Sequence record: MF327008
Strand: one strand, 5' to 3'
DNA from: Shigella phage Sf24
DNA: 64,000 bases
Shown: positions 2,863 to 63,249 of the stretch, piece by piece
How positions within the stretch are numbered: the stretch's first letter is position 1
How the letters are laid out: each line of letters opens with the position of its first letter
Position numbers and translations under genes: made by a program
The notes under the pieces: generated by a model
Databases searched by the model: none
Seen by the model: the letters and a program-made list of their open reading frames with translations, nothing else
What the model was told of the DNA's origin: nothing

Positions 2863-3288
2863 TTATTCCTTAAAGTGTGCTTTCAGCATTTGATACAAGG
2901 ACCATGCCTGTTCATTATTTTCAATAGTAACTTTCATGACTGGGAATTCTGTGAAATCTTCTATTTGTTCTTGCTCTTGCTCTTCCTGCTCTTGCTCTTC
3001 AACTGCCTGATATGGATTTTCCACTTCATCAAAGAACCCAGCTTCGTTAGTAGAAAGCCAGATAAAGTTTTCGTCAAGGATATCACCATGTGTTGCATAT
3101 CCAACTGTGCCAGTAGATGTCACAATTTTAGTAGGACGACCAAGATGGTCAACATCTAAAATTTTAAAAGGATGCATACCTAAACGGCGTGCATAGATTC
3201 CGTTATCAGTATGGTCTTTAATAAAATTTTCTTGAGCTTGTTTATTTTTAAATTGATACCATTTATTAACTTCAAATTTAATAGCCAT
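2863..3288 (-). CDS. goF: GoF-like protein (141 aa)
   Basis: size and position between 39 and cef as in T4. Confidence 0.6.
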
Positions 3289-14682: not shown

Positions 14683-16022
<1,340 letters not shown>

Positions 16023-16045
16023 TATATCATCCTCAGCAATTTGTT

Positions 16046-16079
16046 TTATAATACCATAACAAGCTGAGAAAGTAAACAA
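16046..16079 (-). promoter_or_regulatory. T4-type early promoter driving nuclease-like ORF, dam and 56
   Basis: GTTTAC ... TGGTATTATAA on minus strand. Confidence 0.55.
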
Positions 16080-16115
16080 ATTTATGATAAATATTAATTT
16101 AAAGGAGGACGACGC

Positions 16116-16316
16116 ATGGTACAAAAATTAATGGCAATTGTTAATGCCATCAAAGGTAATAAAAAACGTATAGCTTTTACTATTTCTGCTATGGTAGGAA
16201 TTTTACTCTGGAACTTTATTTTATCACCTGTTGCAATTGCACATGGTATTAATATTCCAGTAGTTACTCTTGATACATTCGTAGATTTAGCATTTGCTTT
16301 AGTTGGGTTAATTTAA
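16116..16316 (+). CDS. small hydrophobic membrane protein, plus-strand gene
   Basis: AAGGAGG 7 nt before ATG; occupies the only non-coding gap between gene 61 and the nuclease-like ORF; ATAAATA late-promoter-like box ~25 nt upstream. Confidence 0.55.
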   Translation: MVQKLMAIVNAIKGNKKRIAFTISAMVGILLWNFILSPVAIAHGINIPVVTLDTFVDLAFALVGLI

Positions 16317-17341
16317 ATCTTAGCATATTTAGATAACCTCATTTTAGCCATCAACCCCTGGGCAATATTATTTTTCATATATTCCATAATTTGTTCAGGG
16401 GTTGCACCTTCCTTTCTAATCATATCATTAACATCTTTTGATTTCCAGGGAGATTTATCCCAAAACATAACTCTTTCTCCTGCATCAACTAATTTAGTCA
16501 TTCGTTTGATAGTGTCAGGGTGACGAGGTTCATTATCTAAAACCCACACTCGTCTATCTTTAAATGGAACAACTTCTAGGTCTAATTGACCACCCGTAAT
16601 AGCTATACCATTTTCAATAAAAAGTGAATCTATAGGTCCTTCTAGAACATATACATCACCATCTTTAACTCGTTCAACACCGTAAATTTTTGTTGCCTCA
16701 GGATAAGCTTTGATGGTGATATACTTTTGTGGAGCATCTTTCTTTAATGCACGTCCTTGAAAAGACTCAGCTTTTCCGTTAGCATTATAAATTGGAATAA
16801 CAAGACGAGGCTCAGAAATTTCCTTTTTGTATGTTCCCGGTGCTATGCTATTAACTAATTTAGGCCATTCGGTTGTAAACCAAAGATATTTCCATTTATC
16901 CTTTGGAATACAACGAGCTTTTACATATTTTATAATTGGATGGTCTTCCGCCAGTTTATCTAATCTAACGCATGACGGAAGAGATTTAATTATTTTCTTC
17001 TCAGGCTGTTTAGGAAGTTCTTTAGGTTTTTCTACTGGACGACTTTTACCTTTTTCTTTTCTTATTTCAAAGATATACTCACGATATAAATCAGGTTCAA
17101 ACTCCTTTAAATATATTCCGATTGGTGCATGATAGTTACAGTTATAACAATGAATATTTCCTTCATTATTATCACCATAATACCATCCACGGGCTTTATT
17201 TTGGTCGGTTTTTGAATCTCCACAAACAGGGCATCTAAACCGCAACTTAAAGGTTGAACTATTATTTACTTGTGTAAATTTAGGTAAATGAGCTAATGCA
17301 CGGTATGCAAACTCATTATCAATCCAAGGTATTGATGACAT
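16313..17341 (-). CDS. 61: DNA primase gp61
   Basis: 342 aa; zinc-binding CPVCGDSK; T4 gp61-like. Confidence 0.9.
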   Translation of the reverse strand: MSSIPWIDNEFAYRALAHLPKFTQVNNSSTFKLRFRCPVCGDSKTDQNKARGWYYGDNNEGNIHCYNCNYHAPIGIYLKEFEPDLYREYIFEIRKEKGKSRPVEKPKELPKQPEKKIIKSLPSCVRLDKLAEDHPIIKYVKARCIPKDKWKYLWFTTEWPKLVNSIAPGTYKKEISEPRLVIPIYNANGKAESFQGRALKKDAPQKYITIKAYPEATKIYGVERVKDGDVYVLEGPIDSLFIENGIAITGGQLDLEVVPFKDRRVWVLDNEPRHPDTIKRMTKLVDAGERVMFWDKSPWKSKDVNDMIRKEGATPEQIMEYMKNNIAQGLMAKMRLSKYAKI

Positions 17342-17343
17342 TT

Positions 17344-17508
17344 TTACTCTTCTTTTTCTTTAGATTCCTCTTTCTTCTTTTTAGGAATCTGTTCAGGACC
17401 TTTATTTACTACAGCACCTGACGTTGTTCCAGTAGAGATATTTTCAGGATTACCACCTGAATCTCCAGCGACCATATCTTCTTTAATAAATTCTTTATAT
17501 GTTTTCAT
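17344..17508 (-). CDS. mini-ORF with capsid-targeting-sequence-like N-terminus MKTYKEFIKE (61.1-position)
   Basis: AGAGG RBS; N-terminus resembles the internal-protein CTS; length 38-54 aa depending on an A-run I could not read unambiguously. Confidence 0.35.
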   Translation of the reverse strand: MKTYKEFIKEDMVAGDSGGNPENISTGTTSGAVVNKGPEQIPKKKKEESKEKEE

Positions 17509-17509
17509 A

Positions 17510-18136
17510 TTAACCTCTATTCATAAAAGCATTAAAAATTTGGTCATCAATAGAAACATTTACTTTAGACTGTTTTTCTGATGGTAATTCATATCCACAT
17601 ATCACAATTTTATGATCAATATCAAAATACACAGAAGCAATATGATTAATGATATTTTCAGTGAAGTCTAAATCGACATCAATATCTTTTTGACCAAAGC
17701 CCAAAGGATAAATAATGCGAGTAATTCGATTATCTTTAACAAAGATTCCACCGACATACTCTGTACTGCGTTTAAAGTCTACACGCCGACGAAATGAAAA
17801 ATATTCAGGCTCTTTATGAGCTCGGCTCATAGGACACAACGAATAACTAGAATAAGAGATGTCAAATCCTACGCCTTCAATATGAGCCAAAGTGTCATGA
17901 TTAAACCAATTATAATCGTACGCCAAATCCATTAGATTATAATATGTAAAAGGCACCGGATTAACATCATTAGTCACAAGCATGTAATTAGCAACTGCTA
18001 TAATTTCATTGTTTTTAACGAATACAAACCGTGATTGATGCGAATGACCTGGACCCGCGTTTTCACGATTAATGATATAACACTGGGCACCTTTATATTT
18101 GTATGTATCTTTGCACTTGTGCATTTGATAGAGCAT
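17510..18136 (-). CDS. hypothetical protein at the 61.2 position (possible AdfA-like anti-DarT factor)
   Basis: 208-aa ORF between 61 and sp; assignment by synteny only. Confidence 0.5.
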   Translation of the reverse strand: MLYQMHKCKDTYKYKGAQCYIINRENAGPGHSHQSRFVFVKNNEIIAVANYMLVTNDVNPVPFTYYNLMDLAYDYNWFNHDTLAHIEGVGFDISYSSYSLCPMSRAHKEPEYFSFRRRVDFKRSTEYVGGIFVKDNRITRIIYPLGFGQKDIDVDLDFTENIINHIASVYFDIDHKIVICGYELPSEKQSKVNVSIDDQIFNAFMNRG

Positions 18137-39001: not shown

Positions 39002-39078
39002 ACTTTGTGAAAATATTTTAGGGAATGACAAGAAGGGAACGATAGCTTAGAATGGTAATATACAGAATGCGAGAAAGA

Positions 39079-39098
39079 AAGGCCCAGAGGGCCCGTCT
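39079..39098 (-). terminator. intrinsic terminator after nrdH
   Basis: GGCCC-AGAG-GGCCC hairpin with U-rich tail on minus strand. Confidence 0.55.
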
Positions 39099-39406
39099 TA
39101 ATCTTCTATGATATCTCTATCATATCCAAGTGAAATGAGAGTTTCTTTGAAGTGTTTAATGTTCTTTTGCCTAGAATCATTAATGAAAATGACCGGATAC
39201 CGAATATTAAGAGATGTGAATCCGGCGCGTTTGGCAAGAGATACAATCAGTGGACGATCATACTCAATCTTACCATTATTAGTAAGAACTTTATAGAAAG
39301 TAAAAGGAGCATTGAGCTCCTTTAGAAGTTTTGTAACTGATTGACATCCAGGACAACGACCTACTTCATCTGGAATTCCATAGACTTCAATCTTATTTTG
39401 TTTCAC
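39098..39406 (-). CDS. nrdH: glutaredoxin-like NrdH
   Basis: CPGC redox motif; position next to nrdG. Confidence 0.65.
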   Translation of the reverse strand: MKQNKIEVYGIPDEVGRCPGCQSVTKLLKELNAPFTFYKVLTNNGKIEYDRPLIVSLAKRAGFTSLNIRYPVIFINDSRQKNIKHFKETLISLGYDRDIIED

Positions 39407-54823: not shown

Positions 54824-55210
54824 TTATTCGAGGGAAAGAAGATATTTACTCTGGTAAAACATTCCAGTAATATCATCTATCGTGCTTTGAATGGCTGGAG
54901 GCATTTCTTTATAAATGCTGTTAGATTGGTCTAGTATACGATCAATCATTTTAATTGTGTCGGTAGGAAGTTTACTAGCATCTGGAGTTGAAGGTGTGTA
55001 TTTTCTACCAGAATACCCCAAATATTGCTCACCAAATTTATCAATCAAATCTGGCAACTCGGAGAAAATAAAATCGTATGCTTTGTGTCTAGCATAACTT
55101 TTAGTTTCAAAATGTGCAGAATGAAAATAAGCTTGTGCAGCCATTAATAAACCTAAGTATTCATCTGCCTTTGAAGGTTTTCCACTTTGTGAAAAGTCGC
55201 TGAATTTCAT
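54824..55210 (-). CDS. hypothetical protein (rI.-1-position)
   Basis: 128-aa ORF adjacent to rI. Confidence 0.55.
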
Positions 55211-55500
55211 TCAGTCTCCAATTTAATGTTCATAATTCTAGCGTATGATTGTGCCATCTCCGCGCCTCGTTCTATACATTCAAAATCAGAAGAGCACGGG
55301 TCATTTTTATAGGTCGTTCTCATAAAACTATAGAATTGTTCAGACGATTCTACGCTTTTATTTTCAAAAAGCATATAAACGTGCCTAATACCAGATTCCA
55401 TAAATTTATCAAAATGAGGATCGACATTCGCTTCAATCGATGGAGATAAAACAAATGACAATCCTAGCATGGCAAAAAGTGCCGTTGCTTTTAAGGCCAT
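55207..55500 (-). CDS. rI: lysis inhibition regulator RI
   Basis: 97 aa MALKATALFAMLGLSFVLSPSIEA signal-anchor, T4 RI-like. Confidence 0.88.
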   Translation of the reverse strand: MALKATALFAMLGLSFVLSPSIEANVDPHFDKFMESGIRHVYMLFENKSVESSEQFYSFMRTTYKNDPCSSDFECIERGAEMAQSYARIMNIKLETE

Positions 55501-55512
55501 AAAGGCCTCCTA

Positions 55513-55725
55513 TCATTTTTGTCCTGTATTTACTTTATGCCGATGCACGGCCTTAACTTTATCAAGGTATTTTTCAAAATTTCGCAATCTAGTATAGTCT
55601 GCCGGAGATTGGTTGAGTGATACTTCTCGACGCAAAGCTGAAATGATATTTCCAACTTCCCTACGAATTTCATCTAATTGAAGAACAGTAAGATTGCGAA
55701 GTTGCTTTTCAGTTAATTGTAGCAT
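55513..55725 (-). CDS. hypothetical small protein (rI.1-position)
   Basis: 70-aa ORF. Confidence 0.5.
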
Positions 55726-59917: not shown

Positions 59918-60279
59918 TACAAACTCTCAGTAAAGGTACGAGCGATAACGTCGCGCTGCTGTTCCGGAGTCAGAGAGTTAAAGCGAACTGCATAACCGGA
60001 TACACGGATGGTCAGCTGCGGATATTTTTCCGGATGCTTAACTGCATCTTCCAGAGTTTCACGACGCAGAACGTTAACATTCAGGTGTTGACCACCTTCA
60101 ATTTTAACCGTAGGCTGTGGTTCAATTTCAATTTCACGGGCATGCAAACCGTAGAAAATTTCCGGGTCTACAAAAGAGTCCTCTTTAAAGGTTTTAGAGA
60201 CAATAATTCGTGCTTGAATACCATCTTCAAAATAAATAGTACCTTTATGCGTGCCTTCAAGAATTTGATATGCTTTCAT
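59917..60279 (-). CDS. autonomous glycyl radical cofactor, GrcA/YfiD-like (T4 Y06I-like)
   Basis: C-terminus [59 protein letters not shown] with glycyl-radical motif RVSGYAV; GC-richer, host-like composition. Confidence 0.85.
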
Positions 60280-62793: not shown

Positions 62794-63249
62794 TTAAAAG
62801 AGGCTGTTCATTATTCGGTAAAGTGAAGGACCCATCACATATTGCCACTGAGTACGAGGAATAAGGGCAAAAGCATCCATCTCTGGAATCATAACACCAT
62901 CTTTATTTTCAAAATAAGACTCGCAATGGCAATTTCTGAACATCTCATGCTCTACTGGAATCGTATAATAAAATAACTGTAAGTCTTTATTACTAGAATA
63001 TTTAAATACACCTAGGTCTTCTAGAAGGTCTGGATTATAATTGTTAAAACCAGTCTCTTCTGAGCATTCTCTTCGTGCTGCATCTAATGCGCTTAAATCA
63101 GAATTTTCTACACGCCCCTTTGGAATATCCCAGCGATGTGCCATCATTCCAGGCTTACGAGAACCAGTAACTCGTCCCATAAATAAATCTTTATCTTCTG
63201 TCATAAAGATAATACCAGCTGATAATGTTTTCATTTTAATTTCCTGCAT
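62794..63249 (-). CDS. nudE: Nudix hydrolase NudE
   Basis: Nudix box GRVENSDLSALDAARRECSEETGF. Confidence 0.85.
   Translation of the reverse strand: MQEIKMKTLSAGIIFMTEDKDLFMGRVTGSRKPGMMAHRWDIPKGRVENSDLSALDAARRECSEETGFNNYNPDLLEDLGVFKYSSNKDLQLFYYTIPVEHEMFRNCHCESYFENKDGVMIPEMDAFALIPRTQWQYVMGPSLYRIMNSLF

Follow-up and report, generated by a model that had tools for sequence, protein, structure and literature searches.

A conserved and probably late-expressed membrane-protein gene convergent on the primase gene of T4-type phages

A 66-amino-acid (aa) open reading frame (ORF) on the plus strand of Shigella phage Sf24 DNA, converging on the DNA primase gene 61, is best explained as a conserved, late-expressed (gp55-driven) inner-membrane protein gene of T4-type phages, a reading to which we give a probability of roughly 0.72. 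The DNA analysed was a 64,000-nucleotide (nt) stretch of sequence record MF327008, called the window below. It is a segment of a Tequatrovirus (T4-like) genome; a 1201-nt query around the ORF was 99.9% identical to Shigella phage Sf25, whose annotation coordinates equal those of the window, and matched T2 and many other phages at about 98%. An earlier note, made from the letters of the window, had singled out the ORF as hydrophobic, as convergent on gene 61 and as the only convincing plus-strand gene in a minus-strand region, and all of its statements about the sequence were confirmed. The encoded protein has a grand average of hydropathy (GRAVY) of +1.26, the stop codons of the ORF and of gene 61 overlap in a common TTAA, and 92 of the 94 features annotated in the first 49 kb of Sf25 lie on the minus strand. 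The minus-strand order is 41, dmd, 61.4, sp, 61.2, 61.1, 61, the gap that holds the ORF, a nuclease-like gene, dam and 56 (coordinates in Table 1).

Conservation and coding evidence

On comparative evidence, the 66-aa ORF is a genuine conserved protein-coding gene of T4-type phages, because purifying selection and synteny both extend across genera. A tblastn search recovered it in 697 phage records, 688 of them at a coverage of at least 80%. About 500 of the 697 were Tequatrovirus records at an identity of at least 80%, while 196 fell below 60% identity. The divergent copies occupied the same plus-strand site, running towards the primase gene and in most cases overlapping its stop codon; the convergence was seen in Tequatro-, Mosig-, Gapriver-, Karam-, Marfa-, Dhaka-, Mosuguk- and Kanagawavirus. 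The overlap with the primase gene was 4 nt in other genera and 21 nt in PM2. The earlier note had proposed conservation and the ratio of nonsynonymous to synonymous substitution (dN/dS) in relatives as a check, and would have given the gene up had relatives carrying the same interval lacked the ORF; the arrangement convergent on gene 61 was instead found in the window and in nine lineages.

Pairwise dN/dS was 0.12–0.5 for most pairs. Comparisons of Tequatrovirus with Karamvirus CkP1, the most divergent copy, gave 0.6–0.76 in three cases and about 1 in three others, with synonymous sites saturated in these comparisons. Between genera, identity at codon positions 1, 2 and 3 was about 0.5, 0.8 and 0.4 (position 2 far above position 1, and position 1 above position 3), which is the signature expected of a hydrophobic coding sequence. 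Amino-acid identity across genera was 27–54%, with 46–54% for Mosig- and Gaprivervirus and 28% for CkP1. W32, N33, P38 and G44 were invariant in 24–25 diverse members, and P48 and G64 nearly so. The single length variant, in phage OE5505, is an in-frame deletion of three codons.

The ORF stays in place while its left neighbour varies. The neighbours on that side are a gene resembling a restriction endonuclease (REase) together with dam in the window and T2, dam only in T4, gp56 directly in Ec_MI-02, sutha and three IMG/VR contigs, or other small genes. The protein matched the PHROG 2024 profile with an E value of 8.3e-31, residues 2–66 aligning to profile positions 1–65 of 65, and the annotation of the Mosigvirus orthologue notes a similarity to RB69ORF029w. 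A profile search extended the family to other T4-like genera, with no named member, and separated two subfamilies. Type A includes the proteins of T4 and RB69 and VR26 gp031. Type B was found in 118 further records, there too beside the primase gene, and includes VR26 gp032, Klebsiella phages Potts1 and Marfa, JS98, WG01, PM2 and Kosakonia 305; it is the type of Klebsiella and Dhakavirus phages. In Gapriverviruses the two types stand in tandem, with VR26 gp031 (A) and gp032 (B) separated by 9 nt; within this genus the B copy is truncated beside an inserted homing endonuclease in RZ and is gone in EAWsc9.

Ribosome-binding site and late-promoter box

The near-perfect Shine-Dalgarno (SD) sequence reported in the earlier note, AAGGAGG with a 7-nt spacer, proved to be unique in the window when both strands were counted. 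Positions 1–49,000 contain 72 plus-strand ORFs that reach 50 aa or more. The 66-aa ORF is the only one of them with any SD core 4–10 nt before its start, and the only one that is not antisense inside a minus-strand gene. GGAG(G/A) stands at the equivalent place upstream of all orthologues.

The ATAAATA box further upstream, which had been noted for its resemblance to the T4 late promoter core, is very likely a late promoter of the gp55 type. Its core occupies positions 16087–16093, 22 nt before the ATG, and transcription is predicted to start about 6–7 nt downstream of the GATAAATA box. An ATAAATA core was found 13–22 nt before the orthologous ATG in eight of nine lineages. The box reads GATAAATA in Tequatrovirus and Mosugukvirus, AATAAATA in dam-less Tequatrovirus, Mosigvirus and Dhakavirus, CATAAATA in Gaprivervirus, and TATAAATA in Marfavirus and Kanagawavirus. 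The upstream flanks of the orthologues are unalignable between genera, and the retention of ATAAATA in eight of nine lineages despite these unrelated flanks supports a gp55 promoter; this conservation across genera is the strongest argument for it.

The use of the heptamer elsewhere in the window is consistent with this assignment. ATAAATA occurs nine times, where 40.7 ± 6.0 occurrences are expected, a 4.5-fold depletion which indicates that the genome avoids it. Besides the 66-aa ORF, it is followed by an SD and an ATG at soc (13712, minus strand), gene 49 (42522, minus strand; AATAAATA), rI.-1/rI (55751, minus strand) and e (62771 and 62784, minus strand), and soc, 49, rI.-1/rI and e are late-expressed T4 genes. 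No good sigma-70 promoter was found on the plus strand upstream of the 66-aa ORF. The late timing of the gene is thus a strong inference from its box and falls short of a demonstration.

Three further plus-strand copies of the heptamer (17708–17714, 60232–60238 and 63179–63185) have no SD or plausible ORF behind them, and one of the three falls inside gene 61.2. These copies may act as late antisense promoters or may just be a chance residue.

Architecture of the protein

That the ORF encodes a small membrane protein, as the earlier note had it, is supported by hydropathy and by transmembrane (TM) prediction, which agree. Residues 1–18 are amphipathic and basic (K4, K13, K16, K17 and R18), and residues 19–42 are strongly hydrophobic, with a mean hydropathy of 2.0. 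Residues 43–48 (HGINIP) form a turn, within a loop at 43–51 that holds G44 and P48. Residues 49–66 are again hydrophobic but contain D53 and D57, and the C-terminus, ending in AFALVGLI, has a net charge of −2. The AlphaFold2 model, built from a 24-sequence alignment, was confident, having a predicted local distance difference test score (pLDDT) of 81.5, with helices at 2–12, 16–42 and 52–63. The TM helix 16–42 holds the invariant W32, N33 and P38, while helix 52–63 is short and acidic. For RB69ORF029w, a TM segment at 21–41 and no signal peptide were reported in 2006 from a TMHMM-type prediction (PMC1524935, Additional file 2).

Across all 24 family members compared, the net charge of the N-terminal segment was +1 to +5 and that of the C-terminal segment 0 to −2. 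By the positive-inside rule, the N-terminal charge implies that the N-terminus is inside, and we infer an N-in topology with a single TM helix. The last helix, of 12 residues, is too short to span a bilayer and is therefore probably interfacial or re-entrant on the periplasmic side. An Asn in the middle of a TM helix, beside a Trp and followed by a Pro, is the type of feature that mediates helix–helix association in membranes, and the invariant W-N and P, together with the Gly/Pro turn, suggest such association here.

Homology searches placed the protein in a family of its own. A full-library phmmer search returned full-length or nearly full-length relatives of 61–66 aa and a few family fragments (44–72 aa); three long repetitive matches were rejected as driven by repeats on inspection. 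No member tested rose above noise in searches of Pfam, NCBIfam or PADLOC. Foldseek searches of the AlphaFold2 model against BFVD and PDB returned family members or noise only. When the family hidden Markov model (HMM) was run against the six-frame translation of the window, it found only the 66-aa protein itself, with no paralogue and no similarity to Imm, Sp, RI or anything else.

Proposed expression and role

Transcription would most likely be late and start from the gp55-type promoter GATAAATA, with a strong ribosome-binding site about 15 nt further downstream, giving a monocistronic or short transcript; a gp55-driven late transcript of this kind is moderately to highly likely. Because no terminator lies between the ORF and gene 61, this transcript would probably also extend, in antisense, into at least the 3' part of the primase gene. 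Efficient translation of the ORF into an N-in inner-membrane protein of 66 aa, either bitopic or hairpin, is likely. The basic amphipathic N-terminal segment would stay in the cytoplasm, the helix at about 16–42 would cross the membrane, and the short acidic hydrophobic helix would face the periplasmic leaflet or dip back into it. Through helix–helix contacts the protein may self-oligomerise or bind a partner membrane protein of the phage or the host. Its most likely field of action would be an event at the membrane late in infection, for instance the timing or inhibition of lysis, or membrane integrity or energisation. The role is speculative, and action by association in a late envelope process is offered as a low-confidence guess. 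It is doubtful that all parts hold together, namely a universally conserved late gene, unannotated in T4, whose W-N/P-motif product acts in late membrane events and whose transcript is also an antisense regulator of gene 61.

Several observations weigh against a conserved late membrane-protein gene. Karamvirus CkP1 is the exception among the nine lineages, with ATTAAATA in place of the ATAAATA core, and the box in the window has G rather than T at −13. A published HMM scan of RB69 late promoters gave no site at ORF029w. Literature searches, which covered ribosome profiling (Ribo-seq) and transcription start site maps, found no transcript, ribosome-footprint or peptide evidence for the locus and nothing on the expression or function of RB69ORF029w; a peptide of the protein such as IAFTISAMVGILLWNFILSPVAIAHGINIPVVTLDTFVDLAFALVGLI would be hard to detect. 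No homologue of known function was found in Pfam, NCBIfam, PADLOC, PDB or BFVD, and the names in the source records were all 'hypothetical protein' apart from 'holin' labels in OE5505 and EAWsc9. Finally, a minus-strand hairpin overlaps the 5' end of the ORF (Table 1), so that conservation within Tequatrovirus could partly serve the other strand. This hairpin is confined to Tequatrovirus, other genera having no such structure, and it therefore cannot explain the conservation of the ORF. As regards position −13, 32 of 50 T4 late sites listed are perfect, 9 of 50 have A at −13 and the rest show other single deviations, and such variant sites are used in vitro and coincide with the 5' ends of RNAs in vivo (PMC2988020). 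Conservation of the T at −13 is poor in other T4-like phages (PMC1524935).

Alternative explanations

The gap could be read as a regulatory spacer that carries, on the minus strand, the gene 61 terminator and an early promoter for the neighbouring gene, with the ORF a chance open frame that annotation software repeatedly picks up. The earlier note had the ORF filling the gap; on the minus strand the gap also contains an early-type promoter and a hairpin with a U-run, both annotated in relatives, and the T4 reference annotators left the ORF out. These minus-strand elements, however, cover only about 60 nt of a 290-nt gap. The ORF persists outside Tequatrovirus without the hairpin, with the cross-genus identity, codon-position pattern and dN/dS well below 1 described above, and its indels are in frame, its strong SD is conserved and it has two paralogous subfamilies. 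The comparative data already contradict the spacer reading, which we regard as highly improbable. A different possibility is that the late promoter itself is what matters, the RNA made from it running antisense across the 3' part of gene 61 and shutting off or destabilising primase mRNA late in infection, with the small protein of secondary importance. A scan of 16316–17600 found no plus-strand intrinsic terminator, and the convergent genes, whose stops overlap in nearly all lineages, leave no room for one between them. Late transcripts of T4 can have either polarity, and at several sites both strands are transcribed at different times (PMC2988020). An antisense role alone would nevertheless leave selection at the protein level, the conserved SD and the invariant residues midway along the TM helix without explanation, and a stable hairpin 36–88 nt past the stop, itself unsupported by covariation, could bring the transcript to an early end or protect it. 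We consider the antisense role unlikely as a full account; it may be an additional effect rather than an alternative, and in that form it is possible, if at long odds.

Two further readings accept the protein but give it a definite function. Two database records name it a holin ('Holin' for OE5505 in UniRef and BFVD, 'holin family protein' in EAWsc9), and a holin or pinholin-type lysis protein would fit a small, membrane-embedded, probably late-expressed product, the tandem Gaprivervirus paralogues recalling holin/antiholin pairs. Lysis by T4 relies on the holin T, the antiholins RI and RIII and the PseT.3/PseT.2 spanins. We reject the label: none of 24 members matched a Pfam holin and none of the six members scanned matched an NCBIfam holin, even at E ≤ 10, and no fold match to named holins was found outside the family itself. 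The charge layout and location conflict with it as well. The charged hydrophilic segment is N-terminal, not C-terminal, the C-terminus is hydrophobic, and the gene has primase and REase-like/dam neighbours, about 46 kb from the endolysin gene e (at about 62.7 kb). The second paralogue is moreover dispensable, as RZ and EAWsc9 indicate. A holin is thus quite improbable. The earlier note had instead thought of a membrane effector, an exclusion factor or a toxin-like peptide, roles that the analysis did not support. A superinfection-exclusion or anti-defence membrane factor, or a type I toxin-like peptide, would suit a small hydrophobic phage protein, the more so as the small envelope exclusion proteins Imm and Sp are encoded in the window. 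The absence of any similarity to these two in the six-frame search speaks against the first idea, as do the early timing of T4 exclusion genes, set against the late-type signal here, and the lack of a PADLOC match. The toxin idea fares no better, since the sole type I toxin signal was one Ldr match at E 0.1 in one of 24 members, and there is no dedicated antitoxin-RNA arrangement, the minus-strand elements belonging to neighbouring genes. We judge this group of functions improbable, and a conserved late inner-membrane protein gene remains the preferred reading.

Features of the locus

Table 1. Positions of the ORF, its signals and the other features described (window coordinates, unless a segment of a relative is named)
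Feature	Position	Strand	Remarks
66-aa ORF (coding sequence)	16116..16316	+	ATG start; 66 codons; predicted small inner-membrane protein, PHROG 2024
Shine-Dalgarno AAGGAGG of the 66-aa ORF	16102..16108	+	7-nt spacer to ATG
T4 late-promoter-type box GATAAATA	16086..16093	+	Consensus TATAAATA (−13 to −6); G for T at −13
Gene 61 (DNA primase)	16313..17341	-	Convergent partner of the 66-aa ORF
Putative early (sigma-70/T4-early-type) promoter for the nuclease-like gene	16048..16076	-	TTTACT-17-TATTAT with TG; back to back with the late box
Terminator-like hairpin (9-bp stem) followed by UUUUUG	16128..16153	-	For gene 61 transcripts; inside codons 5–13 of the 66-aa ORF
19-bp imperfect hairpin	16352..16404	+	36–88 nt past the ORF stop, in the 3' end of gene 61; z −3.5
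Type II REase-like PD-(D/E)xK gene, 186 aa	15462..16022	-	Just upstream of dam
dam	14683..15462	-	Neighbour beyond the nuclease-like gene
Sf25 gp202 (28 aa)	39060..39146	+	On the GGCCCAGAGGGCC hairpin between convergent or adjacent genes
Gaprivervirus segments with small-protein genes	L010 1995..2401; L017 595..975; L011 1995..2310

Both minus-strand elements in the gap are annotated in phages ASO78A and fPS-65, one as a T4 early-type promoter and the other as a terminator; the terminator-like hairpin folds at −14.9 kcal/mol (z −3.2). As for the 19-bp hairpin beyond the stop of the ORF, comparable downstream structures were seen in Mosig-, Gapriver-, Marfa- and Karamvirus, whereas Dhakavirus has none. 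It was rejected as a conserved terminator, as RNAalifold gave no consensus structure and pair counts were not above those of shuffles; it had neither covariation support nor an Rfam family. A non-coding RNA was likewise discarded, the Rfam search giving only a chance miRNA match (E 0.42). The hairpin may shape the 3' end of one or the other transcript or may simply reflect the coding sequence, and its status is uncertain. Elsewhere in the first 49 kb of Sf25, the sole other plus-strand feature is gp202, a 28-aa ORF placed on a GGCCC...GGGCC hairpin, which is more likely a terminator than a gene.

The REase-like protein has an invariant D72 and E85-x-K87. It matched PADLOC REase_II at E 2.4e-4 and, weakly, Pfam DpnII at E 0.011, and has about 10 homologue clusters among 5.8 billion proteins. 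Its gene has its own early-type promoter and a stop codon that overlaps the dam start, so that this gene and dam look like a phage nuclease–methylase pair. In T4 a deletion of about 540 bp has removed the REase-like gene (window 15548..16086 against 3140..3215 of T4 segment L013), leaving about 60 nt of its 3' end upstream of dam. The deletion ends exactly at GAT|AAATA, with the junction in a short TGAT/GAT repeat, and the late box is intact. The 66-aa ORF and the nuclease-like gene were also considered as a functional pair, and this was rejected because T4 and dam-less phages have the ORF without the nuclease.

Prior annotation and significance

The T4 copy of the gene is intact at NC_000866 17738..17938 on the plus strand (L013 3239..3439). 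It has the same GATAAATA box and SD, and its product differs from the window protein at three residues. The gene is annotated in neither NC_000866 nor AF158101, both of which show a 309-nt gap between dam and 61. In a comparison of T4-like genomes from 2006, RB69ORF029w was treated as an ORF novel relative to T4 (PMC1524935), and the omission from the T4 reference is probably the reason. The earlier note had presented the ORF as a fresh discovery, which it is not. It equals RB69ORF029w and Sf25 gp162, the latter at identical coordinates and annotated as 'predicted membrane protein', and it is known as an ORF through PHROG 2024 and hundreds of annotated records.

Our additions are modest: the conservation of the late-promoter core across genera, the two subfamilies with strict primase linkage, the gap in the T4 annotation, the topology argument and the rejection of the 'holin' label. 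The gain is limited because a conserved hypothetical protein was already in public records. T4 is nonetheless among the best-studied viruses, and this gene is still outside its reference annotation, so that it would be missed by genome-wide screens and proteomics that use this annotation. Very few genes oppose the direction of transcription in the early region; this is one of them, and it lies beside the primase gene in every T4-like lineage examined. A late small membrane protein would be an obvious candidate for fine-tuning lysis or the envelope, with a possible bearing on lysis-inhibition biology and on the engineering of therapeutic T4-like phages.

Comparison with known systems

The closest known counterparts, PHROG 2024, RB69ORF029w and Sf25 gp162, are the same family at the same locus, and nothing about them differs in kind. 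Among characterised proteins, T4 RI (rI.-1/rI at 55207..55725, minus strand) is also a small envelope protein with an N-terminal membrane segment. Its genes share with the 66-aa gene a TATAAATA-type box and an SD, and RI acts late, as the 66-aa protein would. The two proteins have no sequence similarity, however, and RI has a periplasmic domain of about 70 aa where the 66-aa protein has about 24 residues after its TM helix. The role of RI in lysis inhibition is established by experiment, whereas the role proposed here is a guess. Small phage holins (for example T7 gp17.5-type or class II/pinholin S21-68) resemble the 66-aa protein in size (60–70 aa), membrane embedding and late expression. They differ in having a charged cytoplasmic C-terminus, as opposed to a basic N-terminus and a hydrophobic C-terminus, and show no family match to the 66-aa protein, whose gene is not part of a lysis cassette. 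T4 Imm and Sp, small proteins of the membrane or periplasm, are encoded in the early-gene block that also holds the 66-aa gene. Their genes are early and on the minus strand, while the 66-aa gene lies on the plus strand, carries a late-type signal and shows no sequence relation to them.

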